64,000 bases of DNA, taken from positions 160,001 through 224,000 of the forward strand of contig CAXNJO010000004.1 in the NCBI GenBank assembly GCA_964202905.1. Reading direction: 5' to 3'. Below the pieces are notes generated by a model. That model saw nothing but the letters and a program-made list of their open reading frames with translations. It made no database searches and was not told where the DNA came from. Below, piece by piece: positions 890 to 16,048 of this stretch. This stretch comes from Polyangiales bacterium. Lineage in GTDB: Bacteria > Myxococcota_A > Polyangia > Polyangiales > JADJQN01. The translations under genes were made by a program, and so were the position numbers. The first letter of the stretch is position 1. The number at the start of each line of letters is the position of its first letter.

Positions 890-1063
890 TCAGCCGCTCG
901 ACGTCAGGCCGGTCGCCGAGACGCCGCCGCCGCTGAAGAGCGTGGCCCGTTGCACGGAGCGCCGACGAAGGACCTTCGGGGCCTCGTAGGGACGGCGCGT
1001 GTCGGACGACGTCGTGGGCACGGGGGTCTCGCTCGGCGGTAGGGTGCGGTCGTTCGTGGTCAT
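890..1063 (-). CDS. Putative RiPP precursor peptide, 57 aa, with lasso-type leader
   Basis: Manual translation: MTTNDRTLPPSETPVPTTSSDTRRPYEAPKVLRRRSVQRATLFSGGGVSATGLTSSG*. GAGGAG lies just upstream. YxxPxV motif and a Thr at the expected -2 position. Sits among RRE, B2 peptidase and rSAM genes. Confidence 0.8.
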   Translation of the reverse strand: MTTNDRTLPPSETPVPTTSSDTRRPYEAPKVLRRRSVQRATLFSGGGVSATGLTSSG

Positions 1064-1141: not shown

Positions 1142-2116
1142 TCATCCCCACCCCCCGAGGCGGGTGCGGCGCACGAGCTCGCGCAGGGCGTGGACGCGCC
1201 GGCCGCGGGTGGCCACGCCCGCCGCGACGCGCTCGGCGAGGCGCTCGAGGCGCGTGCGGCCGAGCGCGAGCTGCCAAGCCGGTGACCAAGGCGCGTCGGG
1301 GGTGATCGCGTAGCCGAGAGCGGCGAAGCTCGGATCGCCGACGAAGGCGGCCGTGACACGGTGTCGGGCCTCGGCCGAGAGTTCGCGCCGCCACGCGTCG
1401 GCGCGGCTCGCATCGGGCGCGCGTCCAATCGCCGCCGCGCTGTACCAGGCGCCATCGGCGGCGAGGGCGGCGTCGTGCGCGCGGCGCTCGGGCGCGAGCG
1501 CGGCCTCGTCGAAGGGGACTTCGAGAAACGCGCAGACGCCCTCGGCCACGGTGCGCGGGGTGGTCGCGAGCTCTTCGAAGCGGACGAGCAGGGTGCGCCC
1601 GGGATGTGCGCGCCGCGCGGCGACCACGGCGTCGGTGCACTTCTTCACGGTGAAGATCGCTGACGCGAGGTCATGGGTCATCCACGGTGTGGGGCGTTGG
1701 AGGTGGCGCGCGCGGCGGCCGACCTCGAGCAGCGAGTGCACCGTCGCGCGGGGGTCGCGGACGCAGAGGACCATCCGCGCGTCGGGCAGCATGTCGAGGA
1801 GCGCGGGGGCTTCGAGGACATTCCACGGCGTCTTGTCGAGGAGCAGGCGGGCACTGCGCCGCGCGCCGTAGCCGTCGAGCAGGGCGCGGAGGTACTCGCC
1901 GCTCGCGCGGTCGATCGTGGCGCGGTCGAAATACACCGCGTGTCGTCCGGCTTCGACGCGCGCGAGGAGCGCGCCGCGGAGTCGGACCAGATCCGGGACG
2001 ACGTCGAGTTCGGGCCCGCTCGCGACGCCGGGAAGGCCATCGAGCATCGTCTGCAAGAGCGTCGAGCCGGTTCGAGGGGCGCCGGCAATGAAGGCGAAAC
2101 GGAGCGCGTCGCTCAT
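1142..2116 (-). CDS. PAPS-dependent sulfotransferase
   Basis: FIAGAPRTGSTLL (5'-PSB loop), DKTPWN, VRDPRATVHS (3'-PB), VRFEEL. Confidence 0.9.
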   Translation of the reverse strand: MSDALRFAFIAGAPRTGSTLLQTMLDGLPGVASGPELDVVPDLVRLRGALLARVEAGRHAVYFDRATIDRASGEYLRALLDGYGARRSARLLLDKTPWNVLEAPALLDMLPDARMVLCVRDPRATVHSLLEVGRRARHLQRPTPWMTHDLASAIFTVKKCTDAVVAARRAHPGRTLLVRFEELATTPRTVAEGVCAFLEVPFDEAALAPERRAHDAALAADGAWYSAAAIGRAPDASRADAWRRELSAEARHRVTAAFVGDPSFAALGYAITPDAPWSPAWQLALGRTRLERLAERVAAGVATRGRRVHALRELVRRTRLGGWG

Positions 2117-3087
2117 GGGACGCCTCCCGAGGCTGCGTCGATGCGCCGCCAGACGGCATGCGGATCGTCGAAGAAATCAGGGCCGGGGACGAGCGTGACC
2201 GTGGACGCTTGCGCCGCGAGAACGCCCAAGAGCGCGAAATGCGCCTGCCGCCATGGCAACCCCTCGGCAGCGAGCAGCGCGGACGACTCGAGGAGACCCG
2301 AGAACCCTTCGGCCGGCGCGACGCGCTCGACGTGCGTGCGCGGTGCGCGATCTGCGGAGATCAGGAGGATGCGGTCGACGTGCCGCGGCGACGACGGTGC
2401 AGGGGCGCGGCGGGCCTCGAGCCGTGCGGGCGCGATCTCGTCCCAGCCGAGGGCGCTGAGCCCCGGCAGGCGCGGCAGGGCCTCCGCAGACAGATGGAAA
2501 GGGCGCGGGAGCGGGGCGGCGATCGCGTGCCGATCGCCCTCGGAAAGCAGACAGGCGTCGTCGCTGAGCATGCTCAGCCCCGCCTCACCGAGCAGCGCGG
2601 TCGTGGTGCTCTTGCCCGCGCCGCTCGGTCCGACGAGGAGGAGCGTTTGCCCGTCGCGGGTCGCGCAGAGGCCGGCATGTACGTGGAAGCGCGCGTGCCA
2701 ACGGAGCGCGAGCACGAGCGCGATGTTCAGTGTCGTGCGGGCGAAGATGCCCCGCGGATCGAGCGCGGGCTCGGTGAGTGCGGCGTGGATGGCGCGGCCC
2801 CCGGGGTCGACGCGCACGCACGCCGAACCGTCTTCGACATGCAGTGCGCCGTCGTCGTCGGCGTGGACCTGCACGCGCCCGTGGAAGAACGACGCGACGG
2901 CGCTCGGCGCGCGCGGCGGGAGCGCCTCGACGAGCGCGAGGGATACGTGCGCGTGCGCCGGCTTGGCGCCGGGCATCGCGGGGGCAAGCGGGCCGAGGGG
3001 CGCGAACGCGGACTTCGGGATGCGCGCGTCGCGCGTGATGCGGAAGGTGATGTCCCCGAGGCGGAGGATGGGCAGATCGTGGGTCAT
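2113..3087 (-). CDS. HPr-kinase-related P-loop kinase
   Basis: HAG...LLLVGPSGAGKSTT...LSDD. ATGA overlaps with both neighbours; start taken as MTHDLP at 3087. Confidence 0.8.
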   Translation of the reverse strand: MTHDLPILRLGDITFRITRDARIPKSAFAPLGPLAPAMPGAKPAHAHVSLALVEALPPRAPSAVASFFHGRVQVHADDDGALHVEDGSACVRVDPGGRAIHAALTEPALDPRGIFARTTLNIALVLALRWHARFHVHAGLCATRDGQTLLLVGPSGAGKSTTTALLGEAGLSMLSDDACLLSEGDRHAIAAPLPRPFHLSAEALPRLPGLSALGWDEIAPARLEARRAPAPSSPRHVDRILLISADRAPRTHVERVAPAEGFSGLLESSALLAAEGLPWRQAHFALLGVLAAQASTVTLVPGPDFFDDPHAVWRRIDAASGGVP

Positions 3088-4085
3088 CGCCCGAGGAGCC
3101 GTCGGGCGTACGCGCTCGCCAGCGAGGTGGACGACGTGCCGGGCCGCGATGCACGCACGTAGCGCGGGTGGGGAAAGATCAGCCAGGGGAGTTGGGAGCG
3201 CTCGTGTCGGGCGATCTGCAACGCGCGCCGCAGGGAGCGCTCGGCGTGTCGCCACACCGACCCGCGCCGATCATCGGCGAGCGTTCGGGCGAGCGCGTCG
3301 GCGTCGCCGGCGTGCGCGGCCCGGGTGAGCGCCTCGAGGGTCGCGACGCCGCGTGCGGCGTGGGGATCGCGGACGATCGTGCGCCAGGTCGCGGCCGAGA
3401 CGTGCACGCGGACCGCACGCAGATCGAGCGCGTGGCGGAGCACGCCGCGGCGCGTGTCGTGATGGTGTCGTTCGACGTGTCGGCAGAGACCGACGGCGAT
3501 CGCGACGTTCGAGGGGATGCGGACCTCGCCGTGCGGCGTCGTGCACCGCTGCGTCTCGGCGAGCGGGCGTGCGACCACGTGGAGATCGACCGTCGCGCCG
3601 CCGGGCGCTTGCCAGACGCCGCCCGGCCACTCGTGGCCCGAGCGCACGTGCCCATCGTGTCGCAGCGTAGGGAGCAGGCGATGGCCCGTCGCCGCGAGCG
3701 CGCGCGTCGCGGCGGGGGCGTCTTCCCGCGTGACGAGCACGTCGACGTCCGACGCGTAGCGCGCGCCGGGCGCGAGCACGCCTGCGGCGAGGAGCGCGGC
3801 GCCCTTGACGACGACGGCCTGCGGGCACGCCGCGCAGATGGACGCGGCGCTTCGCAGCGAGAGGGCCGCGTGGACCGCGGCGTCTGCGCGTGCGTCGTCG
3901 AGCGCGTCGCGGACGTCGTCGGGGGCCTCGGGGAGAGCGTCAGCCAGGGAGGCGCGCAGCCCCTCGAGCACCGCGACACGTGCGGCCTCGGCGAGCACGG
4001 TCCGCCATCCCGCGTGCGTCGCCGGCGCAACGCCGAGAAGCAGCGCGCGGACCAGCGCGAGGCGCGCCTCCGGCGTCTCAGCCAT
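3084..4085 (-). CDS. Nucleotidyltransferase (NTP_transf_5-like, the type found in lasso and HPr-rel clusters)
   Basis: VVVKGAAL...RYASDVDVLV...VDLH signature. Confidence 0.8.
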   Translation of the reverse strand: MAETPEARLALVRALLLGVAPATHAGWRTVLAEAARVAVLEGLRASLADALPEAPDDVRDALDDARADAAVHAALSLRSAASICAACPQAVVVKGAALLAAGVLAPGARYASDVDVLVTREDAPAATRALAATGHRLLPTLRHDGHVRSGHEWPGGVWQAPGGATVDLHVVARPLAETQRCTTPHGEVRIPSNVAIAVGLCRHVERHHHDTRRGVLRHALDLRAVRVHVSAATWRTIVRDPHAARGVATLEALTRAAHAGDADALARTLADDRRGSVWRHAERSLRRALQIARHERSQLPWLIFPHPRYVRASRPGTSSTSLASAYARRLLGR

Positions 4086-4362
4086 GCGACACGACGACGA
4101 GCGCGTCCGCGATGAGGTCGTCGAGCAGCGCTGCGACGTCTCGCTCGGCGTCGGCTTCGGTGCACGCGAACTGCGCCACGAGCGTTGCCGTGAGCGTCGC
4201 GCGCGGTGCCTTGCCGGCCTGCAACACGCGAAACACGCGCGCTGCCGTCGTGTTCAGCGTGTAATAGAACTTCGTGTCGAGGTGCAGGAGCACCGCGGTG
4301 CCGTCCGGGAGATCCGTGGCGACGACGCGGTCGCTCGCCTGAAATTGAGGTGTGTCGCTCAT
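4078..4362 (-). CDS. PqqD-family RiPP recognition element (RRE, lasso B1-like), 94 aa
   Basis: AVLLHLDTKFYYTLNTTAARVF...AERDVAALLDDL, a typical stand-alone RRE. ATG overlaps the B2 stop (ATGA). Confidence 0.9.
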   Translation of the reverse strand: MSDTPQFQASDRVVATDLPDGTAVLLHLDTKFYYTLNTTAARVFRVLQAGKAPRATLTATLVAQFACTEADAERDVAALLDDLIADALVVVSHG

Positions 4363-4865
4363 GGTGTCGTTGGGCACGGGGGGACGCGGAGCAGGGGAGA
4401 GTACCCGGTTGTCTCGCGGTCGAGGACCGGGGTGCCATCGACCTCGGCCCATGCGTGGCACGGCCCGTCGAGGTCGTTCAGCGGGGCGCCGAGCACGAGC
4501 GCCGCGTCCCAGCCCAGGCGCCGCAAGAGCACGGTGCGGCCGACGGCCCGATCGAGGCAGTTCGGCGTGTGGCGCCCGGCCGTGAGCCCCGCGAGCGCGT
4601 CGGCGAGCCGCACCGCGGTGACCGCCTCCGGCCAGGGCCAGCGTGCGCTGCGCCGCACCCCGCGTGGATCGAGACGGGCGACGAGCGCATCGACGGGCGT
4701 ACGTGCGAGGAGCGGTCGAATCCGCCGCCGCGCGAGGACGTTGCCGACGACGACGCGCACGCCCGCGACGCCGTGCCGCCCCAGCCAGCCGAGGACCTCG
4801 TGGCGCAGCCGCGTCACGGGGAGAGCGTCGAGCCTGGGTGTGCGCGGGTCAAGGATCGACCGCAC
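4359..4865 (-). CDS. Lasso B2-type transglutaminase-like leader peptidase
   Basis: NCLDRAV...LLRRLG...LVLG...HAWAEVDG carries the catalytic Cys and His. GTG start at 4865, with GGAG 7 nt upstream, is inferred. Confidence 0.85.
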   Translation of the reverse strand: MRSILDPRTPRLDALPVTRLRHEVLGWLGRHGVAGVRVVVGNVLARRRIRPLLARTPVDALVARLDPRGVRRSARWPWPEAVTAVRLADALAGLTAGRHTPNCLDRAVGRTVLLRRLGWDAALVLGAPLNDLDGPCHAWAEVDGTPVLDRETTGYSPLLRVPPCPTTP

Positions 4866-5772
4866 GGAGGCACTCCACTGGATGACGTGGCGTGGTCGCG
4901 AGCGTGAGCCAGAGCGCGCCCTCGCCCGTCTGCACGAGGACGTGCGGCCCGCTTTGCGCGAGGACGCAGCCAGGGGCGGGGGCGTCCGCGGGCGCCGTGT
5001 GGTCGACGATGCGGGCCGCGAGCGCGCGTACGCGCCGCCCACGCGCGTCGCGGAAGTGTCCGCCGTTCGCTGCTTGGATCCGCCGGGCGACGTCCTGCGC
5101 CGCCCGGGTCAGATCAGGCTGGAGTTCGGCGCTGCGGGGCCGGGGCTCGAGCGCTCCGGTCGGCTGCGGGCGGGCTCTCTCGGGTGTGTCGCGGATCGCG
5201 GCGAGGATGCCGGGCAGCGCCGCCGCCGCGAGCCCGAGCAAGCGCTGCGTCAGGAGATCGCACGAGTCGCCCGGCAGGATGGGCGTCTCCTCGGCCCAGA
5301 GGATCGGGCCGGCGTCGAGCTCGGGCGTCATGCGATGCACGCTCACGCCCGTGGAGGCGTCGCCCGCGAGCAATGCGCGCTCGACGGGGCGTGGGCCGCG
5401 GTGGGCCGGGAGCAGCGACGGATGCACGTTCCAGCCGCCAAGTGGCAGACGCGACAGCACGGAGTCGGGGATTCTCACGGGGAAACCGGCGCAAATCAGG
5501 AGATCCGCCTGCGCCCGGAGCACCCGAGCCCAGTCCGCCTCGCCGCGGACGCGCACGACGGGCACCCCGATGCTGCGCGCGAGGCGTACGACGGCGGGGC
5601 GGCGTTGCGGGCGCAGCGCGTCGCGGGCGTCGCGCGCGACCTGACGCCATGGGCTCACCCCCGGCAGCACGCACGCGACCAGATCGTGCCCAGCGAGGCG
5701 CACCGCGTGTGCGACGACCACCGCGTGCCCCACGAACACGGCACGCAGGGCTCGGCGGAGGGGTGGGGTCAC
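4849..5772 (-). CDS. Formyltransferase (Fmt-like / sugar N-formyltransferase family)
   Basis: NVHPSLLPAHRGPRP...TGVSVHRM...LDAGPI. GTG start uncertain. Confidence 0.85.
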   Translation of the reverse strand: MTPPLRRALRAVFVGHAVVVAHAVRLAGHDLVACVLPGVSPWRQVARDARDALRPQRRPAVVRLARSIGVPVVRVRGEADWARVLRAQADLLICAGFPVRIPDSVLSRLPLGGWNVHPSLLPAHRGPRPVERALLAGDASTGVSVHRMTPELDAGPILWAEETPILPGDSCDLLTQRLLGLAAAALPGILAAIRDTPERARPQPTGALEPRPRSAELQPDLTRAAQDVARRIQAANGGHFRDARGRRVRALAARIVDHTAPADAPAPGCVLAQSGPHVLVQTGEGALWLTLATTPRHPVECLRAVDP

Positions 5773-5916: not shown

Positions 5917-8088
5917 ATGGGCTTCCGAAGCTTGTTGCAAACGTCTTGCAGGGCGGGGCTCCTCGCGGCCTGCGTTGGGTCAGCAGGTTGCGCCAGCGAG
6001 CTGGTGCCACGCGTCGAGGCGATCTGCGACGGGGCGAGCGACTGCCTCGACGCCGATGTCGAAGCGCTCCTCGATGCGTCGGTCGACGCGGCGATCGGCG
6101 ACGACGCCGGTGCCTCCCCCGATGGCGGGGAACGCGGCGACGCCGGCAACGAGACCGCCGATGCGGCCGTGGTGGACGCGGAGTTGGGCGATGCGGCGCT
6201 CGCCGACGCCTCCGACGCAGCGGCCCCCGACGGAGGTTCTTCGGACGCGGGGCCCCCAGACGCCGGCCCTCCGGCGTGCACCTGGTCCCCGTACGGGGAG
6301 GGCATCACCGGCGGGCAGGTGAACTGGGCCGCGTTCGACCCTGCCGAGCCGGGACGCATCTGGGCGACGACCCCGACACAAGTCCTTCGCACGACAGCGG
6401 GCGCGACGTGGGCCGAGACCGGGCGTCCCGGGAGCTCGGTCACCAGCCTCGCGCTCCCTCGCGATGGGCTCCCCCTGATCGGCGCTTCGTCGGATGGTCT
6501 GCGTCGCTCCGACGATGACGGCGTCACCTGGCGCGCGGGCGCGCTGGGCGGGCTGTCCATCACGAGCGTCGTGCGCAGCCCCGCGGACCCCCGCGTGCTG
6601 TTCGCGACCACCAGCGGAGGCGGCTTCTTCATCTCGTCGGACGGTGGGACGGGCTGGCGCTCAGCCGGCTTCGGGCTCTCGCCGTCTGCGGTGCTGGCCG
6701 TGGCGCCCGACCCCCGGGGCGGGCGCGACGTGGTCGCCGGCGGCCCCTACCTCAACGCGACCGGGGGCTGGTCAGACACGGGCTTCCTCGCGCGCTCGTC
6801 GGACGGCGGTGTCACATACGCTGTCGTCTTCACCGAGACTGGACGCACCCAGGCGCTCGCACGCTGCCCCGGCGATCCGGACGTGCTCGTCTCCGCGCAC
6901 GTCTACGGCATGGCGCGCAGCCGCGACGGCGGTCGCACGTTCACGCGCATCGCGCCGACGGTCTTCGGCAACACGGGAGCTGTCGCGCTTGCGGGCGCTG
7001 CGTGCGAGACCGTCTACGCGACGCGCATCGGACAGGGCGTGATGCGCTCGCGCGATGGCGGGGACACGTGGGAGGGGCCGTTGCGAGAGGGCATGACGCT
7101 CGTCCCGGGTCAGACTCCCCGGGGCCTCAGCGTCGACCCCGCGGATCCGCGGCACGTCGTCGCGTCGTCGAGCGGCGGTCTGTTCGAGACCTTCGACGGC
7201 GGCGATCGTTGGACCCCTGTGCCCGGCATCGGCATCCCGGTGCTCCGTGCGGTGCGCGCGAGCGAAGCGGAGCCCGCGACGCTGTGGCTCGCGACTTGGG
7301 GGCTCGGCGTGTGGATGCGACCGCCGGGCGATGTCTGGCGCTTCGTCTCCGGCGTCCCGCGCGATCTCGTGAACTCCGTGCGCGAGGACGCCGAAGGCCG
7401 CGTCTTTTCCATGGGATATCGGTCGCCCGACCGCGTGGCGTTCACGAACCCCGGGCCGATGGGCAACGTGTTCGACGTCGCCACCGATCCGGGTGCGCCG
7501 GACGTCGTGTGGGCGGTCACGCAGACACTCGGCATCTGGCGCTCCTCGAACGGCGGCGTGACCTTCACGCAGGCGAACGGCGGCCTCGCGCCGTGGGTGA
7601 CGCCCGTGGGCACGTTCGTCGACGCGCGGTCCGTCCTGGTGACCGCGGGCGCCGTGCTCGTCGGCACGCAGGGGCGTGGTGTGGCGAGAAGCACCGACGA
7701 CGGCGCGTCGTTCGCCCTCGACCCGTCCGGGGACGGGCGACGGATCAGCTGCCTCGAGTCGCTCGGCGACGCGGGCGTCGTCGCCTGTGTGAGCGCGGCC
7801 GACCCCGGCTTCCTGCTCTCGCGCGACGCAGGGCTCACGTGGAGCCCATGGAACGATGGGCTCGCGTCGCTCGACGTCGCAGGCATCGTGCGTGACCCCC
7901 GGACGGGGTCGGTCTACGCGACGACCTCGGAAGGCGTCTACGTGCGGGGCGTGGACCGATGGGAGCCCGTCGAGCCGGGCTGTCTCCAGCCCGGTCTTGG
8001 CGCACCGACGGTCCAGCGCGACGGCGACGGACGCTCGTACCTCGTCGTCCCGGCGCCGGAAGCCCTGCTCGTGCGCCGCCCGATCTGA
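5917..8088 (+). CDS. Lipoprotein with BNR/Asp-box beta-propeller repeats
   Basis: Lipobox-like VGSAGC, Asp/Ala/Gly linker, and many SxDGGxTW repeats. Confidence 0.8.
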   Translation: MGFRSLLQTSCRAGLLAACVGSAGCASELVPRVEAICDGASDCLDADVEALLDASVDAAIGDDAGASPDGGERGDAGNETADAAVVDAELGDAALADASDAAAPDGGSSDAGPPDAGPPACTWSPYGEGITGGQVNWAAFDPAEPGRIWATTPTQVLRTTAGATWAETGRPGSSVTSLALPRDGLPLIGASSDGLRRSDDDGVTWRAGALGGLSITSVVRSPADPRVLFATTSGGGFFISSDGGTGWRSAGFGLSPSAVLAVAPDPRGGRDVVAGGPYLNATGGWSDTGFLARSSDGGVTYAVVFTETGRTQALARCPGDPDVLVSAHVYGMARSRDGGRTFTRIAPTVFGNTGAVALAGAACETVYATRIGQGVMRSRDGGDTWEGPLREGMTLVPGQTPRGLSVDPADPRHVVASSSGGLFETFDGGDRWTPVPGIGIPVLRAVRASEAEPATLWLATWGLGVWMRPPGDVWRFVSGVPRDLVNSVREDAEGRVFSMGYRSPDRVAFTNPGPMGNVFDVATDPGAPDVVWAVTQTLGIWRSSNGGVTFTQANGGLAPWVTPVGTFVDARSVLVTAGAVLVGTQGRGVARSTDDGASFALDPSGDGRRISCLESLGDAGVVACVSAADPGFLLSRDAGLTWSPWNDGLASLDVAGIVRDPRTGSVYATTSEGVYVRGVDRWEPVEPGCLQPGLGAPTVQRDGDGRSYLVVPAPEALLVRRPI

Positions 8089-8117: not shown

Positions 8118-9086
8118 ATGGCGGACTTCGCACTCGTCGGCGCGGCAGGATTCGTGGCGTCGCGGCACATGCGCGCGATCGCGGAGACGGGTCACCAGCT
8201 CGTGGCCGCGCTCGATCCCAAGGACAGCGTCGGCATCCTCGATTCCTACTTCCCGGATGCCCACTTCTTCGTGGAGTTCGAGCGCTTCGATCGGCACATC
8301 GACAAACTCCGACGCCGTGGGACGCCCGTGTCCTACGTGAGCATTTGCTCACCCAACTACTTGCACGATTCGCACATCCGCTTCGGTCTCCGCAGCGACG
8401 CGCACGTCATCTGCGAGAAGCCGCTCGTCCTCAATCCGTGGAACGTCGACGGCCTCGAGGAGCTCGAGCGCGAGAGCGGGCGCCACGTCTACAACGTGCT
8501 GCAGCTTCGGCTCCATCCGGCCATCCGCGCGCTTCGCGACGCCTACGCCGCGCGCATCGCGGCGGATCCTTCCACGTGCGCCGACATCGAACTGACCTAC
8601 GTCACGAGCCGCGGTCGCTGGTACCATGCGTCCTGGAAGGGCGACGAGGAGAAGTCGGGCGGCATCGCCACCAACATCGGCGTGCATTTCTTCGACATGC
8701 TCCAGTGGATCTTCGGGCCCGTGAAAGAGAGCGCCCTGCACCTCGCGACGGGCGAGACGGCGGCCGGGCATCTCGAACTCGCGCACGCCCGCGTCCGCTG
8801 GCTGCTCAGCATCGACGCCCGTGTCCTGCCTGAGACGGCGCGCGCGGGCGGCAAGCGTACCCACCGTTCGGTCCGCGTCGACGGCGACGAGTTCGAGTTC
8901 AGCGACGGCTTCACCGATCTCCACACGGCGACCTACCGGGACATCCTCGCGGGCGGCGGCTTTCGCGTGGGCGAGGCCCGTCAGGCCATCCAGATGGTCC
9001 ACGACATCCGCCACGCGCGCGTAGATCGCGATCGCGGCGCGCTCCATTCCCTGCTGGCTCACCGCGATGCCATCCGCACCGCGTGA
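8118..9086 (+). CDS. wbpB: Gfo/Idh/MocA oxidoreductase, WbpB-like UDP-GlcNAcA 3-dehydrogenase
   Basis: FALVGAAGFVASRHMRAI, ICSPNYLHDSHIRFGL, ICEKPLVLNPWN, SGGIATNIGVHFFD, EFSDGFTDLH. Confidence 0.85.
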   Translation: MADFALVGAAGFVASRHMRAIAETGHQLVAALDPKDSVGILDSYFPDAHFFVEFERFDRHIDKLRRRGTPVSYVSICSPNYLHDSHIRFGLRSDAHVICEKPLVLNPWNVDGLEELERESGRHVYNVLQLRLHPAIRALRDAYAARIAADPSTCADIELTYVTSRGRWYHASWKGDEEKSGGIATNIGVHFFDMLQWIFGPVKESALHLATGETAAGHLELAHARVRWLLSIDARVLPETARAGGKRTHRSVRVDGDEFEFSDGFTDLHTATYRDILAGGGFRVGEARQAIQMVHDIRHARVDRDRGALHSLLAHRDAIRTA

Positions 9087-9284
9087 ATACGGCGTCGCCG
9101 GGCCCGTCGTGACGCGGGGCACCGAGCCGACCCCGGCGCGAAATCCTGAGACGATCGCCCCCGGATCGTGGCCGCGCACGGCGCATGGCGAGGGCAGGTC
9201 CGGGACGTCGTCCGCCTGCGCTGGCCGGCCGTCTTTCAGACTCGGCGGGCGCTCGCGCGCCATCGTGACGCTCGCCTGGGGCGC

Positions 9285-10787
9285 ATGAAACTGCTCGGTG
9301 CGCTCACCTCGTCGGCCGTCTTCCACGTCGCGAGCATGGTCAACGGGCTCGCGACCGTGCCGCTCTTCTTGAGCGCATTCGGGCGCGAGAACTACGGATT
9401 CTGGGCGGCGCTGCTCGGCACGACTGCCTACCTGTCACTGCTCAACTTCGGCGTGGCGCAGACCGTCTCGAGCGGCGCATCGAGAGCCGCGCGTGACGAC
9501 GCGGCGGCGGTACCGCGTCTGATCGGATTCGGCTTTCGGTTCTACCTTCGGGTAGGCGTCGTCGCGCTGCCGACGGCGATCGTCGTGGGACTCGCGTGCC
9601 CGTGGGCGGCCTGGTTCGGACTCGATGCGAGCCGGGACGTCGAGAGCCGACTGACCGCCGCCGCCGTGTTTGGCAGCTTCATCGTGGAACTCCCCTTCTC
9701 CGTGCTGAGGGCCGCCCTGTACGGTGCGGGAGAGGTCACCCAGGAGCGGTTGCTCGGGGTCGGTGCGATCGTGCTGCGGGTGGCTGCCGCCGCGGTCTTC
9801 GCGGTGACACAACCGGCCCTCTGGCTGGGCGTTCTGGTGTTGTCCGCCATCAACCTCACGAGCGCGGTCGCGGCGTTCGCGCTCCTTCAGCGTCGATTTC
9901 CGGCGCTCTGGTCATCGTTGCGGGCACCTCGGAGCGCCGAGCAGGTCGTCGAGGCAGCCGCGATGCGACCGCAGAGCGTCAACTACTTCGTCCTGCAAAT
10001 CGCCGGGGCCATCGTCTGGTCCACCGATGCGCTCCTCACGGGGTTCATGCTCGGCGCGGGGGCAGCGGCGGAGGTGTCCGCGGCGTGGCGCGTCATCAGC
10101 ATCGTGTTGTCGCTCGGGGGGGTCGTCGTTCCTGCGGTCGCGCCCACGCTCGCGCGCGTGTGGGCGGAGGGCGACACGGCGCGTTCGGTGGCGCTCGCCA
10201 CGGACACCGCGCAGGTCGTGTTCGCGTTGCTCCTCGCCGGGACGCTCGGCGCCGCTGCGGCTGGCGAGGCAATCTTCGCGTTGTGGCTGGGCCCGGACAT
10301 GTTTGCGGGGCGAGGCGCGTGGCTCGCCTACTGCCTCATCGTCGTCGTGCAGGCGATGCTCGTCGTGCCCGAAGCGTTCGTAACGCAGACGGGGCGCCAT
10401 TCCGCCTACGCGCGGGCGACCCTCGTCGAAGCCGCGATCAAGCTGGCCCTCAGCCTCGCGCTGATGCGCGCGTTCGGCCTGATCGGGTTGCCGCTCGGGA
10501 CGCTCATCGGACGTTGCACGACGACGTTCTGGATCGTCTTGCGCTCCTTCGGCGAGGCCACGGGCCAATCGTGGGGACGCTGGCTCGCGCGGGTGATTCG
10601 GCCATCCGTGATTCCGGCCGTGGGGTTCGTGGTCGTCTTCGGCTGCGGACGCTGGGTCATCGGCGAAGGCAGCGCCTCGACGGTGTTCGCGCTGGGGACC
10701 GCGAGCGGAGTGGTCTACGTTGTCCTGTATGCCTTGACGGGACTGCCGGACGCGGTCCGCGCCAGGCTGATGAGGAGCCGAACATGA
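9285..10787 (+). CDS. Wzx-like polysaccharide flippase
   Basis: About 12 hydrophobic segments and FGRENYGFW; polysaccharide-locus context. Start uncertain. Confidence 0.75.
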   Translation: MKLLGALTSSAVFHVASMVNGLATVPLFLSAFGRENYGFWAALLGTTAYLSLLNFGVAQTVSSGASRAARDDAAAVPRLIGFGFRFYLRVGVVALPTAIVVGLACPWAAWFGLDASRDVESRLTAAAVFGSFIVELPFSVLRAALYGAGEVTQERLLGVGAIVLRVAAAAVFAVTQPALWLGVLVLSAINLTSAVAAFALLQRRFPALWSSLRAPRSAEQVVEAAAMRPQSVNYFVLQIAGAIVWSTDALLTGFMLGAGAAAEVSAAWRVISIVLSLGGVVVPAVAPTLARVWAEGDTARSVALATDTAQVVFALLLAGTLGAAAAGEAIFALWLGPDMFAGRGAWLAYCLIVVVQAMLVVPEAFVTQTGRHSAYARATLVEAAIKLALSLALMRAFGLIGLPLGTLIGRCTTTFWIVLRSFGEATGQSWGRWLARVIRPSVIPAVGFVVVFGCGRWVIGEGSASTVFALGTASGVVYVVLYALTGLPDAVRARLMRSRT

Positions 10788-11743
10788 CCTCGATTCCCAT
10801 GCTCGCGCCGCTCGATCCGCGGGTTCCGCGGTGGGACGCCAACGCCCTCGAACCCCGCCGCTGCCCGCTCTGCTCCGGGGCGGGAACACCCCGGTTCCGT
10901 CGCCCCGACGCCCTCGTCGTCCGCTCGTGCGTGTGTGGAACGTGGTTCGTCTCTCCGGCGCCGAGCCCCGCGGCGCTCGACGCGTTCTACCGCACGTACA
11001 CCGCTGTTCACCGCGCCGGCTCGGTGGAGCGCCAGCGCGAGGCCATCCGGGCACACCGTCCTGAGGATTCGCTGCTCCTGACCGAGCTCGGGAGCGTCGG
11101 TCCGCTGGCGGGCAAGCGCGTCCTCGACGTCGGCTGTGGACTCGGCGTGTTCCTTCACCTCCTCGACCGCGTCGGTGCGGAGCCCTACGGCGTCGACCTC
11201 GATCCGGGAAGCGTCGCCTTCGCGACGACGCACCTCGGCCTGTCTCGGGTGCAACTCGGGACGATCGTCGACGTCGGGGCGCGGGCGTTCGACATCCTCA
11301 CGATGCTCGACTTCATCGAACATCCCCTCGACGTCGGGACGACCCTCGAGCGCGCCCACGCGCTGCTCGCGCCGGGCGGGATCCTCGCCCTTTGGACGCC
11401 CAACGCGACGGGATTCGATCGTGATCCCAACCCCGTCGCGCTCCGCATGGACCTCGAACACATGCAGTACTTCTCGTGCGCGAGCATCGCCGAGATCGGA
11501 CGGCGGTTCGACTTCACGACAGTTCACCTCGAGACCCTCGGGAGCGCGGCGCCCGTCGCCGGGCGCTCAGTCGGCCACGCACCACTCGTCCAACGCACGC
11601 TCGAGAGCGCGAAGCGGACCGCCCGCGCCCTGGAGCGACGCGCCGGCCTGGCCGGATTGCGGGGCAGGTGGATGAAGAAGGCGGAGCGCTGGACGGAGCG
11701 GCGTGGCGATTACCACTTGATGGCGCTTCTCCAGAAACGCTGA
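10784..11743 (+). CDS. Class I SAM-dependent methyltransferase with N-terminal Cys motif
   Basis: CPLC...CVC, VLDVGCGLG, FIEH. ATGA overlap and GAGGAG upstream. Confidence 0.85.
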   Translation: MTSIPMLAPLDPRVPRWDANALEPRRCPLCSGAGTPRFRRPDALVVRSCVCGTWFVSPAPSPAALDAFYRTYTAVHRAGSVERQREAIRAHRPEDSLLLTELGSVGPLAGKRVLDVGCGLGVFLHLLDRVGAEPYGVDLDPGSVAFATTHLGLSRVQLGTIVDVGARAFDILTMLDFIEHPLDVGTTLERAHALLAPGGILALWTPNATGFDRDPNPVALRMDLEHMQYFSCASIAEIGRRFDFTTVHLETLGSAAPVAGRSVGHAPLVQRTLESAKRTARALERRAGLAGLRGRWMKKAERWTERRGDYHLMALLQKR

Positions 11744-11854
11744 ACAACGCGCGTCCGCGCGCCCATCGTCCGCCGGGGCGCACTGCACGACGGAAACGAC
11801 GCGGGCGCTGCCGCGCTCCGAGGAGCGAAGCAGCGCCCGACGAACGATCGAGCC

Positions 11855-13889
11855 TCAGTTTCGAACGAAGTAGACGTCGGTGTTCCCGGTGTCGAAGGCA
11901 GTCGTGCCATCGATGCTGAGCACCGAGGAGGTCGTCTCGAAGGTGGTCCACTCGCCATTGCGGCTGATGGAAACGACCGGTGAGAGTGGCGTCACGGACG
12001 TGATGCCCACGGCCGACGCGCCCTCGCCATTGCGCGACATGAGTCGGGTCGTCCCCGTGCAGCGGTCCCGCATGTAGCTGGCCTCGCCGACGGTCGTACC
12101 GTCGAACGCGCCGTTCGACCGGAACACGGTACGACAGCCGTTCGACGACACCCTCGCGACCGTGCTCAGCGAACCCCCCGTCTGCGCGCCCGCGGAGTTC
12201 ACGGAGAGGATCGACATGGTCCCGGGCGTCGACAGGCCACCGACGATGGCGCCCGAGGGAACGAACTGGAACACGTCGGTCGACGCGTTCGTGTCCGCGA
12301 TGCCCTGCGAGCAGGTCGAGTGGAACACGACCGTCGTTCCGTCGCCGGAGATCGACGGGCTGAGAGGCTCCAAGCAATTCGTCGTGATGCGGGTCGTCGT
12401 GCTGGCGGACACCACACGGAGGAACACGTCGCGCGATCCGGGGGGTGTCCCCGCTCGCGAGGTTGACCGTGTTGGAGTCGAACACGACGCGGTTTCCATC
12501 GTCGCTGATGGACGCGCGCAGGGAGACGTTCCGATTGCTGCTCTCGGGGGGAGCCACTCCGGCTCCACCCATCAGCGTGCTGCCCGTCGCGCCGTTCGCC
12601 ACCGAGATGCTCGTGGTGGTCCCGGCAGACCGGTCCTTGCGGTACACCTGCGCGCGGCCGTTGATGCAACCCGCCGTGATGTTCGCCGCGCTCGGTGCGG
12701 TTGTGCTCTGACCGCACAGGCGCGCGCACGTCGAGTCGAAGGCGACGAAGCGGCCGTTCGCGCTGATCGAGGGGCGGAATGCACCGACCCCCTGGAGCGG
12801 GGCCGCGGTCGGCGAAGTGGGCGCGCAGAATGCCGGGATGGTGCCCGAGGTCGTGGTGCTCACGCCGGTCGTCGTCCCCGCCGTGATGTCGCGCGCGAAG
12901 ATGTCGGACGCTGCGTTCGCGTCCGACGGGACCATGTCGGTCGCCGTGGACGCGAAGACCACGATGTTCCCGTCGCTGCTGAGGCAGGGGGTCGTCGCGT
13001 CGCCGGTCGTCGTGATGGCACCGGTGCTGCGGAAGCTGACGAGGACGAGGCCGCCGGTGGTCGTGTCGTACCGGTAGACGTCGCTTCGGCTGTTCGTATC
13101 CGTCGAGACGAGCGGAAGGGAGGTCGAGAACACCGAGAAGCGTCCGTCATCCGTGATGCAGCCAACGCGCGCGTCGCCCGCCTGCTTGCGCCCCTGCTCG
13201 TCGAGCGACGCGATGGACGGCGCGTTCGGGCCGCCCGCCGTCTGGACCGTCGCGAAGACCTTACCCTTGAACGTGAAGCTCGTCGACGTCGGCTGGCGGA
13301 AGCGCCAGCGGCGCTGCGTCACGAAGCGGGTGAAGCCAGCGGCGTTCGGCTCGAGGGTCCCGTACCGCCAGAGGCCGCGCGTCGCGTCGAGCCCGAGCGT
13401 CGTGCTCGTGGCGCCTCCGTAGCCCTCGAACCCTGCGGTGATTTCCGTGATCTGCGAGTAGGCGTTGCTCAGGTGCCGGGTCGCGAAGAAGTGGCGCAGG
13501 TCCACGTCTCCGAAGAAGCAGTTGGGTGCCCCACCGGGGATGGCGCCGCACTCGGCGCTGCCCGCAGCGCGCGTGCCGGAGGCGACGGTGATCAGCTCCG
13601 CGGTGTCCGCGGGGCCGCTGCCGGTCATGCCGTCCTTGACCACCGTCACCTCGGTCAGCGGATCGCGCGCGCCGGCGATCTCACTCGCGCCGCGGAGGGC
13701 GCCGTCGTCCAAGAAGCGCAGCGTCATCGTCCCGGACGCGACGTCCACGGTGCCCTCGAAGTCGAGGACGACCGTGTCCGGGTCCGCCTCGAGGCTCCAC
13801 GTGGACTCCGGTCCCCCTTCGCTCGCGCAACCCGAGGCGGCGCAGGTCAGCGCGGCGACAACAGCGAAAATGGACGATATTCGACGCAT
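11855..13889 (-). CDS. Lipoprotein with TolB/PD40-like beta-propeller repeats; frameshifted near 12445
   Basis: Lipobox AASGC and repeats such as PSISANGRFVAF and DTNSRSDVY. The reading frame switches at a G6 run (12440-12445) and continues SRDVFLRV...TDVYFVRN*. Confidence 0.75.
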
Positions 13890-14064
13890 GATCACGAACC
13901 TCCAGGGCGACGCTCGGCGAGGAGCGCGCGTAAGTTTCAGGAGTATACGGGCCGGTCTCGCGTTCACCAAGGGGGTCGGTTGCAAATTCGCGGCGCACCG
14001 TTCATCGGATGTGTCGTTGCCGCGTCGTGGAGGAGCGCAGCCGGCGTGCTAGCGTCCCGCAGAC

Positions 14065-15207
14065 ATGGTTCCCCCCGCACGGCGCCTCGTCTACCTCGCG
14101 CCGGGGCTCTTCGACTTCGGCGGCATCGCGCGCTACGGCCGCTACCAGCTGCGAGCCCTTCGAAGCGTCGGCGGCGACCGCGTGCGTGCCGCGTCGCTGC
14201 TCGGACCGAGCGCGGACGCCTCGTTCGCGGAAGCCGTCGAGGTCGATTACATCGCCGGAGGGAACGGCCGTCGTCATAAGGCCGCGTTCACGGCGCGCGC
14301 AGCCGCCTGGGCCCGGCCGGGCGCGCTCGTGTGGTGCGGGCACCTGCACTTCGCCCCGCTCGGACTCGGTCTGGCCGCCGCGGTCGGCGGCACGTGCGTC
14401 GTCAACGTGTACGGACTCGAAGTGTGGTCCGCCCGTCGCCGAGCCGCCCTCGCGGCCCTCGGGCATGTCGAGGTCGTGTCCGATTGCCACGCCACGGCCG
14501 ACCACCTCGTCTCGAACGGGATCGTCCGCCCGGACCGCATCCGCGTCATCTGGGACCCGGTTGACGTCCGCTTTTCCCCCGGCTCCGTCGACCCCGCGAT
14601 CGAGGCCCGCTACGGCCTCACCCCGACGTCCTTCCGCGTCATGTTCCTCGGGCGCCTCTCGGCCGGAGCGGCGCACAAGAGCCCGGATGCGTTGATCCGG
14701 GCGTTCGCGGCCGCAAGGCTCCCAGCGGACGCCCAGCTGGTGATCGCCGGGGCAGGGGATCGGCGACCGGCACTCGAGGCGCTCGCGGCGGAGCGGGGAT
14801 GCGCGGGTCGGGTCGTCTTTGCCGGACGCGTCGCGGACGAGGACCTGCCGGGTCTTTACCGATCGGCGTCGTTGTTCGTGCTCGTCAGCCGGAAATACGA
14901 TGGAGGCGGGGAGGGCCTGCCGCTCACCCCGATCGAGGCCGCGGCGTGCGGCGTGCCGATCGTCGTGGGCGACGAGGATGGCTCGCGCGAAGCCGTGCGG
15001 GACGGCGAGACCGGTTTCCTCGTGCGTTCCCGCGAGGACGCCGCGCTCGTGCGGGTGCTGGAAGACGCGGCCGCCGATCCGAACAGACTTCGCGGCCTCG
15101 GGGCCGCCGCTGCGCGCGACGCACACGAGCGTTTCTCCTACGCGCGCTTCGAGCGTCAGCACCGCGCGCTGATCGAGGCGATTGACGCCGGGAATGTCGG
15201 GCGATGA
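14065..15207 (+). CDS. Glycosyltransferase family 4
   Basis: GGIARY, FLGRL, EGLPLTPIEAAACGVP. Confidence 0.9.
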   Translation: MVPPARRLVYLAPGLFDFGGIARYGRYQLRALRSVGGDRVRAASLLGPSADASFAEAVEVDYIAGGNGRRHKAAFTARAAAWARPGALVWCGHLHFAPLGLGLAAAVGGTCVVNVYGLEVWSARRRAALAALGHVEVVSDCHATADHLVSNGIVRPDRIRVIWDPVDVRFSPGSVDPAIEARYGLTPTSFRVMFLGRLSAGAAHKSPDALIRAFAAARLPADAQLVIAGAGDRRPALEALAAERGCAGRVVFAGRVADEDLPGLYRSASLFVLVSRKYDGGGEGLPLTPIEAAACGVPIVVGDEDGSREAVRDGETGFLVRSREDAALVRVLEDAAADPNRLRGLGAAAARDAHERFSYARFERQHRALIEAIDAGNVGR

Positions 15208-16016
15208 CGCGTGGCTTCGTCCTCGCGAAGAGCCGGGCCCGAGGTTGGTTCTCCAACCAGGCCGGCTTCCGGCTGCTCGACGCCCGTCACGACGACGCGT
15301 TCTTGGTCTCGTACCCGCGCTCCGGTAGCACCTGGCTGCGCACGGTGCTGAGCAACCTCCTCGTCCCGTGGGGCCGCGCGAACCCGGACGTCTTCAACGC
15401 GCTCATCCCCGGCGTCACCCTGCGTGGCGCCCTCCGTGCGCGCGCCCTGCAATCCCCGCGCATCATCTCGTCGCATGCGCCCCACCAACCGGGACTTCCG
15501 CGGGCGGTGTACCTGGTCAGAGATGGACGAGATGCGCTGGTCTCCTACCACCTCTACCAGAAGAGCCGCGGCGGTCCGGGTGGGACCGTCCCGTTCGCGA
15601 CGTTCCTCGACGAGCACCTCGAGGGACTGCACGGCCCACCCTGGCATGCGCACGTGGAGAGTTGGCTTCGGGCAGGACGGGCCGAGTTGGGAGACCGTCT
15701 CTGCGTCATCCGCTACGAGGATCTGCTGACCGATCCGCTCCGCGGGATGCGTGGCGTGGTCGAGTTTCTGGGGCTCTCTGCGACGGACGAAGGGCTCGCT
15801 GCGGCGATCGAGGGGGCGTCGCTCGAGACGATGAGGGCCGTGGAGGCGCGGCGGTTGGGCGGGGTCGTCTCCGGCGACAGGTCCTTCTACCGGAGCGGCG
15901 AGGCGTTGCTCGGGGCCGGATGGTTCGACGACGCGATGTACGATCGCTTCGCCGAGGTCGGAGGCGTGGCCCTGAGCCTCTGCGGGTACCCGCTCCGCCC
16001 CGAACATCGACCGTGA
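15204..16016 (+). CDS. Sulfotransferase (Sulfotransfer_1 type)
   Basis: LVSYPRSGSTWLR, YLVRDGRDALVS, IRYEDL, FYRSG. Confidence 0.9.
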   Translation: MTRGFVLAKSRARGWFSNQAGFRLLDARHDDAFLVSYPRSGSTWLRTVLSNLLVPWGRANPDVFNALIPGVTLRGALRARALQSPRIISSHAPHQPGLPRAVYLVRDGRDALVSYHLYQKSRGGPGGTVPFATFLDEHLEGLHGPPWHAHVESWLRAGRAELGDRLCVIRYEDLLTDPLRGMRGVVEFLGLSATDEGLAAAIEGASLETMRAVEARRLGGVVSGDRSFYRSGEALLGAGWFDDAMYDRFAEVGGVALSLCGYPLRPEHRP

Positions 16017-16048
16017 ATGCGCGCGCCACGCGTGGTAACGAATGCGCG

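Follow-up and report, generated by a model that had tools for sequence, protein, structure and literature searches.

A conserved small gene of Myxococcota, encoding a putative RiPP precursor with a lasso-type leader, beside a gene for a radical-SAM enzyme

The stretch analysed here, hereafter the window, comprises 64,000 nucleotides of the genome of a Polyangiales bacterium (assembly GCA_964202905.1, contig CAXNJO010000004.1; G000:C4:160001-224000 in our numbering). Our subject is a small open reading frame (ORF) on its minus strand, at positions 890-1063, which probably encodes the precursor of a ribosomally synthesised peptide with post-translational modifications (RiPP). The ORF begins 78 nt past the stop codon of a sulfotransferase gene and ends 37 nt ahead of the start, at position 852, of a gene for a radical S-adenosylmethionine (radical-SAM) enzyme, and its translation is a 57-residue peptide, MTTNDRTLPPSETPVPTTSSDTRRPYEAPKVLRRRSVQRATLFSGGGVSATGLTSSG. 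A preliminary description of this DNA had placed a small ORF, with GAGGAG upstream of it, in the gap between these two genes, and both positions are borne out (Table 1). The residue numbering that it had used (Y26, P29 and T41) is correct on translation, as are its residue counts for a predicted 15-residue core peptide, FSGGGVSATGLTSSG, which follows T41-L42 and contains four Ser, two Thr, five Gly, Phe as its first residue and no Cys, Asp or Glu.

In DNA of 72% GC, where 88 ORFs of at least 40 residues overlap the first 12 kb, the length of an ORF is uninformative, and conservation is therefore the test that is needed. The bait was the 356-residue radical-SAM protein, the full sequence of which was taken from the 15 kb preceding the window (L003; numbers of this kind denote the loci compared). 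Searched against a single genome from each species, this bait matched 155 stretches; relatives are encoded by 134 of them, and the 80 best were retained. A motif scan was applied to 21 loci (L017-L037). The radical-SAM proteins of L017-L036, which come from Polyangium, Byssovorax, Sandaracinaceae, Anaeromyxobacter and other Myxococcota, are 47-60% identical to that of the window, and that of L037 is 34% identical. A homologous small ORF was found in 19 of the 21 loci, the two others being L036, which is a 2.9-kb fragment starting within the radical-SAM gene, and the distant L037. In 16 of the 19 the small ORF ends just upstream of the radical-SAM gene; in L027 and L028 some 2.2 kb separate the two, which are on opposite strands, and in L034 the ORF is found about 1.2 kb upstream.

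The pattern of substitutions is that of a protein-coding sequence. Within a conserved block of 21 codons the homologues differ 1463, 1102 and 1856 times at codon positions 1, 2 and 3, the third position varying most, and the same comparison holds 911 synonymous codon differences. Sixteen of 20 homologues carry GGAG, GAGG or AGGA 3-12 nt upstream of the ATG taken as their start, and the GC content at third codon positions of the ORF in the window (0.90) is like that of the flanking genes. The 57-codon ORF is a real, conserved gene under coding constraint. A 311-nt region, searched for an RNA element, folds no better than shuffled sequences do (z = +1.68) and revealed neither promoter-like nor terminator-like sites.

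The family to which this gene belongs is sizeable, with a patchy distribution. Out of 5.8 billion proteins, a profile made from the alignment of 20 precursor ORFs (A1) retrieved 250 at E <= 1e-3, with 1.5e-21 for the best match, and the family comprises at least 250 clusters at 90% identity; among the matches listed, all 120 are 'hypothetical' or unnamed and belong to no Pfam family. Matches at E <= 1e-3 occur in 18 of 401 Myxococcota genomes, that of the window included, and at <= 1e-9 in 10 (reported range 4.2e-9 to 3.8e-18). Cultivable carriers of the family include Polyangium fumosum DSM 14668 (L020) and Minicystis rosea (P0057). Searches with the single peptide in the genomes of 40 relatives yielded one true match (G027, E 3.6e-4); the genome belonging to the same genus, which is 80% complete, and the two belonging to the same family gave nothing better than E 0.04. 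In metagenomes the single peptide retrieved no relative, and a four-sequence alignment retrieved seven loci. No Pfam family matches the peptide of the window, and models of lasso peptide precursors matched only one of the 20 aligned members (NF033521, E 0.07). The preliminary description had named the conservation of leader and core among Myxococcota as a point to check, and it is answered by the homologues in 19 of 21 loci, by the at least 250 database proteins and by the conserved positions of the core described below.

Merging the 120 listed database proteins with the 20 locus sequences, identical ones counted once, gave 133 distinct family sequences, on which the following counts rest unless stated otherwise. 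The N-terminal 20 residues are not conserved in alignment A1. Its 20 sequences all have M1, Y26, P29 and R35, and nearly all have S36 and L42. The motif YxxP is present in all 133 sequences. The fifth residue after its Tyr is Leu in 90, Cys in 23, Ile in 12 and Val in 8, and KKRS follows the motif in 121. Thr stands two residues before the predicted core in 130 sequences, with Val in the other three, and Leu directly before the core in 132. With Tyr at -17, Pro at -14, Val at -12 and Thr at -2, the spacing in the window is that of YxxPxL and Thr in lasso leaders. The preliminary description had read the ORF as a precursor with a lasso-type YxxPx(L/V) motif, of the kind bound by a RiPP recognition element (RRE), and had proposed that a B2 peptidase cuts after T41-L42; the canonical spacing, the invariant YxxP and a co-conserved B1-type RRE argue for the first claim, and the conserved Thr and Leu together with a co-conserved B2 protease make the second the best reading of the cleavage site.

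The predicted cores are short and uniform, 13-18 residues long in 130 of 133 sequences and 15 residues in 88. Their first residue is Phe in 95, Leu in 27, Val in 6, Ile in 3 and Gln and Ala in one each, their second is Ser or Thr in 132 (Thr in 95), Gly occupies position 5 in 123 and the C-terminus in 120. Cys is absent from all 133; any Asp or Glu occurs in four, and at positions 7-9 in none. Gly (21%), Thr (19%), Met (17%), Ala (9%) and Ser (9%) lead the composition. Among the 88 cores of 15 residues, Gly is found at position 5 in 85, at position 10 in 69 and at position 15 in 84, and Ser or Thr at position 2 in all 88 and at position 12 in 82. The core thus reads as three pentads of the form h-(S/T)-x-x-G, each ending in Gly, which in the window are FSGGG, VSATG and LTSSG. 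The window peptide belongs to a Met-free 'FSGGG' subfamily (P0105, P0115, P0117 and the metagenome loci L116-L122). Some metagenome relatives have atypical cores behind the same leader, at L121:89-226 and L119:7972-8109, with FSGCAPDACPGPPLVGP containing two Cys and one Asp and FSGQGPPSIGLTGHDDPR having an acidic tail.

Table 1. Features of the precursor gene and of the operon around it; positions refer to the window unless a locus is named

Feature	Position	Strand	Basis or remark
Precursor peptide gene	890-1063	minus	ATG start, 57 residues plus stop; homologues and family statistics
Leader, residues 1-42	938-1063	minus	Within precursor ORF
Predicted core, residues 43-57	893-937	minus	Within precursor ORF
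Precursor stop codon	890-892	minus	
YEAPKV (Y26-V31), predicted RRE-binding element	971-988	minus	Y and P invariant in 133/133 family members
T41-L42/F43-S44, predicted B2 cut and predicted phospho-acceptor Ser44	932-943	minus	Family conservation; Tyr+15/Tyr+18 spacing equal to LPP motif
GAGGAG, Shine-Dalgarno-like	1067-1072	minus	3 nt 5' of precursor ATG
PqqE-like radical-SAM maturase	1-852 (start at 852); full 356 residues at L003:14782-15852	minus	PF04055, 75 bits
Sulfotransferase	1142-2116	minus	PF13469, 101.8 bits; ATG overlaps kinase stop
HPrK-like peptide kinase, 324 residues, ATG at 3087	2113-3087	minus	TIGR04352, E 9.8e-10; catalytic motif
NTP_transf_5 nucleotidyltransferase-like gene	3084-4085	minus	PF14907, 50.8 bits
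Discrete PqqD-type RRE (lasso B1-like), 94 residues, ATG at 4362	4078-4362	minus	PF05402, 45.4 bits
B2-type transglutaminase-fold cysteine protease, GTG at 4865 or 4817	4359-4865	minus	PF13471, 43.2 bits (cut-off 26)
Fmt-like formyltransferase, first operon gene, GTG at 5772 or 5739	4849-5772	minus	PF00551, 95.2 bits; PF02911
SAM methyltransferase and glycosyltransferases GT4 and GT2	In L003, operon continuation past radical-SAM gene		

The genes upstream of the precursor supply candidates for its processing (Table 1; LPP, linear polyphosphorylated peptide). ATGA start-stop overlaps join the B2, PqqD, NTP_transf_5, kinase and sulfotransferase genes, which indicates translational coupling; the domain scans and start codons give a single predicted minus-strand operon. 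The profile of the RRE finds the lasso protein TbiB1 (5v1u, E 1.6e-13) and TfuB1 (3.6e-9) among solved structures, vs only 1.9e-3 for the PqqD of pyrroloquinoline quinone (PQQ) biosynthesis, and it also matches two structure entries of 2026 named as PqqD-family chaperones. In the B2 protease Cys103 (in TCLYR) and His137-Ala-Trp (in GHAWVE) are invariant in nine of nine aligned sequences. The kinase carries H137, G153-x2-G156-x-G158-K159-S160 and D176-D177, of which H, G153, K and DD recur in all 15 sequences compared; it scores 38 bits against HprK-related kinase A (TIGR04352; cut-off 200), and in a search of solved structures it gave only P-loop matches to ABC ATPases. The best named match of the sulfotransferase is NoeE, a carbohydrate sulfotransferase (36.8 bits).

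The radical-SAM protein has a CX3CX2C motif (C14, C18, C21) and five C-terminal Cys (C232, C251, C252, C310, C313), all invariant in 19 of 19 sequences. The SPASM motif has seven Cys, and the C-terminal set of this protein is smaller. Since the protein begins directly with CX3CX2C, it has no N-terminal RRE of its own. Among solved structures it comes nearest to PqqE (6c8v, E 3.7e-15) and then to SkfB, and all its NCBIfam matches lie far under the respective cut-offs (MftC 84.6 vs 265 bits, PqqE 58.3 vs 381). The protein thus appears, by these matches, to be related to the PqqE and MftC maturases and not to be a member of either group. Among its matches in the PDB is also cytosylglucuronate decarboxylase, a sugar-modifying radical-SAM enzyme (E 1e-7).

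Conservation of these partners was followed by tblastn in the 18 related loci of at least 8 kb. The PqqD-type RRE was found in all 18, the HPrK-like kinase in 17 and the B2 protease in 14; NTP_transf_5 occurs in at least 9, this count being a lower bound, as the Pfam scan covered long ORFs only. The sulfotransferase, the methyltransferase, GT4 and GT2 had no counterpart by tblastn in any of the 21 genome loci, and the formyltransferase had one in two of them (L032 and L033). All three formyltransferase-bearing loci, the third being the metagenome locus L116, have that gene in the same place upstream of B2. In L116, where the precursor is 75%, the radical-SAM protein 81% and the sulfotransferase 72% identical to those of the window, the order beta-propeller/formyltransferase-B2-PqqD-NTP_transf_5-kinase-sulfotransferase-precursor-radical-SAM-GT4 is as in the window. 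The tailoring genes are therefore a feature of the close subfamily of the window and not of the family.

Beyond this closest set, the 60 more distant radical-SAM loci (L037-L096) were searched in the same way, at low sensitivity: an HPrK-like gene was seen in four (L037, L065, L071 and L096), and no PqqD, B2 or precursor in any. L065 and L096 belong to Herpetosiphonaceae, and the radical-SAM proteins of the four loci are 26-48% identical to that of the window. As HPrK-like genes stand beside distant radical-SAM genes, those of Herpetosiphonaceae included, the pairing of radical-SAM enzyme and kinase reaches beyond Myxococcota.

The operon is embedded in a polysaccharide locus. Polysaccharide genes occupy both flanks (window 8118-17167 and L003:6894-14772), among them Poly_export/SLBB, an epimerase, GT1, GT2, GT4, two DegT genes, a GFO oxidoreductase and a second sulfotransferase, together with two SAM methyltransferases and a 539-residue membrane protein that has no Pfam match. 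Other recurring neighbours of the family's loci are ABC exporters (eight loci), Wzy_C genes (four) and PD40 beta-propeller genes (five). The Wzy_C genes, which are O-antigen ligase-like, flank the cassette at L026:13826-16438, L032:2-1702, L033:1-2193 and L035:3-1571, and a Wzz/GNVR gene lies near it in L024. The Wzy_C domain also marks O-oligosaccharyltransferases that glycosylate Ser and Thr, so these neighbours are a possible route to a glycosylated peptide. The PD40 beta-propeller proteins adjoin the cassette in L028, L030, L031, L032 and L035. In the window a gene for a 723-residue beta-propeller of BNR/sortilin type (5917-8088, plus strand) is divergent from the operon, and a protein of 65% identity is encoded at the same position in L116. 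Farther away lies an 823-residue ORF (11514-13985, minus strand) with a signal-peptide-like N-terminus and no Pfam match at E <= 1e-5. In Polyangium, a VanW/PG_binding_4 gene and a gene for a MiaB-like radical-SAM protein (UPF0004-Radical_SAM-TRAM) follow a few kb downstream (L020:12292-13851, and the same place in L018, L021, L022 and L023); these are probably unrelated synteny.

The leader motif, the discrete B1-like RRE and the B2 protease are all lasso-type. The system is nevertheless not a lasso peptide system, because the window and the related loci have no cyclase and the cores have no acidic ring acceptor. Pfam and NCBIfam scans found no lasso cyclase, which would be an Asn_synthase homologue, among the operon genes, and none of 71 ORFs of at least 440 residues in 18 related loci matched Asn_synthase (PF00733). 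The single match in the genome is a 640-residue frame on contig C11, a different contig from that of the operon. In five other genomes that carry the family 16 Asn_synthase matches are listed, a count that has no bearing on adjacency to the clusters. The core in the window has no acidic residue at all, and none of the 133 family cores has Asp or Glu at positions 7-9.

Several described systems resemble parts of this cassette. YxxP is what lasso RREs recognise, and PqqD and a sactipeptide RRE are described as sharing a broader motif, W/Y/LxxP/L/I (PMC12710340). In the phosphorylated lasso peptide system Bsf, as described in PMC10368454, the leader of BsfA has YxxPxL at -17 to -12, the kinase BsfK phosphorylates Ser3 and also its Thr variant, and B1 accelerates phosphorylation as well as cleavage; according to the same account, phosphorylated lasso peptides can have Ile or Val at -2. 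BsfK carries the motif H148-G163-G166-G168-K169-S170-D186-D187, which is that of the kinase in the window, with the same distance of 16 between Ser and Asp (PMC10368454). In pseudomycoidin the NTP_transf_5 homologue PsmN is reported to add hexoses onto phosphoserine (PMC9266682). The cassette studied here shares with Bsf, paeninodin and pseudomycoidin, as far as PMC10368454 and PMC9266682 describe them, a YxxPxL precursor, split B1 and B2 proteins, an HPrK-like kinase and a nucleotidyltransferase, and, with Bsf, a candidate kinase target in a Ser near the cut site (Ser3 in Bsf). In those systems a lasso cyclase is present and the core carries Gly1 and Asp8; the present one lacks both and has a radical-SAM enzyme instead.

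A second relative is the group of LPPs (Popov et al., Nat Commun 2026; PMC13381572). As that paper describes them, the core gene set consists of an RRE, an HprK-like kinase and an NTP transferase, with no cyclase; the leader, YxxPxVLxHQxIxFETxxS, in which YxxP is named as the part recognised, is cut after Thr; Ser3 bears up to four phosphates; the unphosphorylated precursor is cleaved poorly; the kinase LppK rejects Thr in place of Ser; and LPP and paeninodin clusters sit in capsule loci. The cassette in the window is similar in having a discrete lasso-type RRE together with an HprK-like kinase, an NTP transferase and no macrolactam cyclase, and in lying in a polysaccharide locus. Its leader shares YxxPxVL, and if Tyr is counted as 1, Thr falls at 16 and Ser at 19 in both cases, here Y26, T41 and S44. 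There are differences, too. HQxIxFE is replaced by RRRSVQRA in the window and by KKRSVxRA in the family. The leader peptidase of LPPs is SpI-like (a signal peptidase I of archaeal type), whereas B2 would take the peptidase role here and no SpI-like gene is present in the operon, every gene of which Pfam assigns to another family. LPP clusters have an MsbA-like exporter, whereas tblastn with the exporter of L032 found none in the window and the preceding 15 kb. LPP precursors are 35-200 residues long with variable C-termini, whereas the core here is conserved and of 13-18 residues. LPPs are described as restricted to Bacillota, whereas this precursor family is found in Myxococcota (the features of LPPs after PMC13381572). 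Finally, a radical-SAM enzyme is conserved here and has no counterpart in LPPs; the word 'radical' occurs 0 times in PMC13381572.

Systems built around radical-SAM enzymes are more remote. PQQ and mycofactocin biosynthesis (PqqA/D/E and MftA/B/C) likewise pair a discrete PqqD-family chaperone with a radical-SAM enzyme carrying an auxiliary Fe-S domain, one that is putative in the enzyme here, whereas the precursor here has no Glu/Tyr pair and no C-terminal Val-Tyr, the RRE of the cassette resembles lasso B1 more closely than PqqD, and a kinase and B2 are present. The NCBIfam system SynChlorMet (ScmC, ScmE and ScmF) combines an HprK-like protein with radical-SAM/SPASM enzymes, and our proteins match it weakly (ScmC 18.5, ScmF 82.3 and ScmE 68.3 bits; cut-offs 125 and 400); the cassette here differs in having a single radical-SAM enzyme, B2 and a lasso-type leader. 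A literature search, judged by titles and the beginnings of abstracts and with the supplement of PMC13381572 outside its scope, found no description of a cassette of lasso-type B1 and B2, HprK-like kinase and radical-SAM enzyme, and no paper under 'SynChlorMet'. Around 300 RREs detected by lasso models and found together with radical-SAM enzymes were treated as false positives by RRE-Finder, according to PMC7470986. By these comparisons the precursor system appears closest to LPPs and phosphorylated lasso peptides, differing from LPPs in the peptidase and from both in the radical-SAM enzyme.

Taken together, the evidence suggests that the ORF encodes the precursor of an uncharacterised RiPP family of Polyangiaceae, Sandaracinaceae and allied Myxococcota. 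In the pathway that we propose, the discrete PqqD-type RRE would bind the leader through Y26-x-x-P29-x-V31, as the identity of this motif with that of lasso and LPP leaders suggests, and would present the peptide to the HPrK-like kinase for phosphorylation of Ser44, in keeping with the LPP spacing and the BsfK-type motif. The NTP_transf_5 enzyme may extend the phosphate, by analogy with PsmN of pseudomycoidin, and in the subfamily of the window glycosyltransferases, a methyltransferase and a sulfotransferase may also take part. The PqqE-like radical-SAM enzyme, having no RRE of its own, would therefore rely on the same PqqD, and would modify the core, which is rich in Gly, Ser and Thr and in many members in Met; one may guess that it introduces a cross-link or several (-2 Da each), or epimerises residues, in the h-(S/T)-x-x-G pentads, whose repetition would fit a repeated local reaction. 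As the core has no Cys, such a link would not be of the sactionine type. The B2 cysteine protease would cut after T41-L42, freeing the 15-mer FSGGGVSATGLTSSG. We infer the order of these steps and all of their chemistry. The product would then probably be a 15-mer freed of its leader, carrying phosphate and further decoration and altered by the radical-SAM enzyme. The Ser or Thr at core position 2, Ser44 in the window, is the likely kinase site, named mainly because the spacing of Tyr, Thr and Ser (+15 and +18) equals that of LPPs, with the two positions of the family best conserved after the motif coinciding with those of the LPP residues.

Beyond what the preliminary description had seen, this reading adds that the system is not a lasso system, that core position 2 is likely the kinase site and that the locus lies inside a polysaccharide cluster. 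On the modifications themselves its proposals fared unequally. It had considered the Ser and Thr residues as candidates for phosphorylation, nucleotidylation or sulfation, and of these phosphorylation is plausible, as is the transfer of a nucleotidyl or glycosyl group, given the recurrent kinase and NTP_transf_5 genes, while sulfation finds its enzyme in none of the 21 genome loci and only in the closest relative, L116. It had also offered Phe1 as a site of radical-SAM cross-linking or N-formylation. For the family the first idea is not sustained by a position at which more than a quarter of the sequences have another residue, and the second meets a formyltransferase that occurs in two of the 21 genome loci and in L116, which could as well formylate an amino sugar of the polysaccharide locus. 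Sulfation and N-formylation are at most features of a subfamily.

The binding of leader and RRE, which the preliminary description had suggested modelling, was examined with a predicted complex. The PqqD-precursor model reached an ipSAE of 0.40, vs 0.00 for the best control, with a partner pLDDT of 54-56, and the runs share at least 90% of contacts. The mark applied to such models is reached by 116 of 157 solved complexes and by 2 of 215 mismatched pairs; at 0.60 or under it is reached by only 18 of the 157 and by both passing mismatches. The model was built on our own alignments, solved lasso RRE-leader complexes exist, and its pass may come from likeness to these. The model thus lends weak support to binding, and it gave no contacts.

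The weakness of that model is one of several points that weigh against the pathway proposed above. Another is that the RRE scores 49.5 bits with NF033530 (lasso PqqD), under the curated cut-off of 70, and that Pfam SPASM is not detected in the radical-SAM protein. B2 was unseen by tblastn in four of the 18 loci, which reflects either low sensitivity or true absence, and the ABC exporter of other loci has no counterpart in the region searched around the window. The operon runs into the methyltransferase and glycosyltransferase genes of the polysaccharide locus, and some of its enzymes may act on sugars. Thr occupies core position 2 in 95 of 133 sequences, whereas LppK, as PMC13381572 describes it, refuses Thr; BsfK accepts its Thr variant according to PMC10368454. 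LPPs are cut directly after Thr, so a cut after T41 instead of L42 is conceivable by analogy. Lastly, no expression, peptide or biochemical data were found for any family member.

The alternative that survives best, and which we nonetheless consider unlikely, is that the product is a linear phosphopeptide or phosphoglycopeptide like the LPPs and nothing more, the radical-SAM enzyme and the downstream methyltransferase and glycosyltransferases serving the polysaccharide pathway. Such a division of labour would suit a locus set amid Poly_export, epimerase, GT2, GT4, DegT and second sulfotransferase genes, in keeping with the capsule loci in which LPP and paeninodin clusters are reported (PMC13381572), and the match of the radical-SAM protein to cytosylglucuronate decarboxylase points the same way. 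However, the radical-SAM gene is the one most tightly linked to the precursor, lying directly downstream in 16 of 19 loci, and this linkage holds in Polyangium loci that have no obvious sugar genes nearby. Its best relatives, moreover, modify peptides (PqqE, SkfB, MftC and the ScmE/F and AlbA models), and it has no RRE of its own while PqqD is always present.

It is less likely still that the ORF encodes a small protein that is not processed at all, for instance a regulator or structural partner of polysaccharide synthesis, with the neighbouring enzymes acting on other substrates. This would agree with the recurring polysaccharide genes, including Wzy_C in L026, L032, L033 and L035 and Wzz/GNVR in L024, and cleavage and modification are without direct evidence. 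Against it, what is conserved in the protein is exactly a leader of lasso or LPP type whose cut site has the form Thr-x, and after it comes a short tail of low complexity; an RRE and a leader peptidase have been conserved along with it; and conservation is lacking in the first 20 residues.

That the product is a genuine lasso peptide, closed by a cyclase from some other part of the genome, is a very improbable reading, close to refuted: the lasso-like leader motif, B1 and B2 and the Asn_synthase gene on contig C11 would be in its favour, but that gene is on another contig, no long ORF of the related loci matches the cyclase family, and neither the core of the window nor positions 7-9 of any family core offers an acidic residue. 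A chance ORF, for which the crowd of 88 ORFs in 12 kb of GC-rich DNA could be cited, is already refuted by conservation, to which the coding signature and the synteny add, and has a negligible probability.

Returning to the proposed RiPP family, one may speculate about what its members are for. According to this speculation, which we hold to be doubtful, the family is a new RiPP class that has recombined B1/B2 leader handling of lasso type with a PqqE-like radical-SAM enzyme and a kinase and nucleotidyltransferase of LPP type. Its product would be a 15-mer cross-linked by the radical-SAM enzyme, on which a phospho-Ser or phospho-Thr at position 2 would anchor a glycan made by the co-operonic glycosyl-, methyl-, sulfo- and formyltransferases. 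Such a small phosphoglycopeptide would be made within the exopolysaccharide locus and have a functional tie to it, for example as a primer, a cap or a signal.

The gene described here represents a sizeable, unnamed family of precursor peptides with a sharply conserved leader and a tiny core rich in Gly, Thr and Met, which recurs, like the LPP and paeninodin clusters, beside polysaccharide loci. It suggests that B1/B2 leader processing of the lasso type also serves peptides other than lassos, alongside a radical-SAM enzyme, and it would carry the theme of linear, phosphorylated, cyclase-free relatives of lasso peptides, introduced with the LPPs in 2026, from Bacillota to Myxococcota, with a different peptidase and an extra enzyme. 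One small RRE may serve three enzymes, the kinase, the radical-SAM enzyme and the protease, and radical-SAM chemistry on a core that is free of Cys and poor in aromatic residues could be new.

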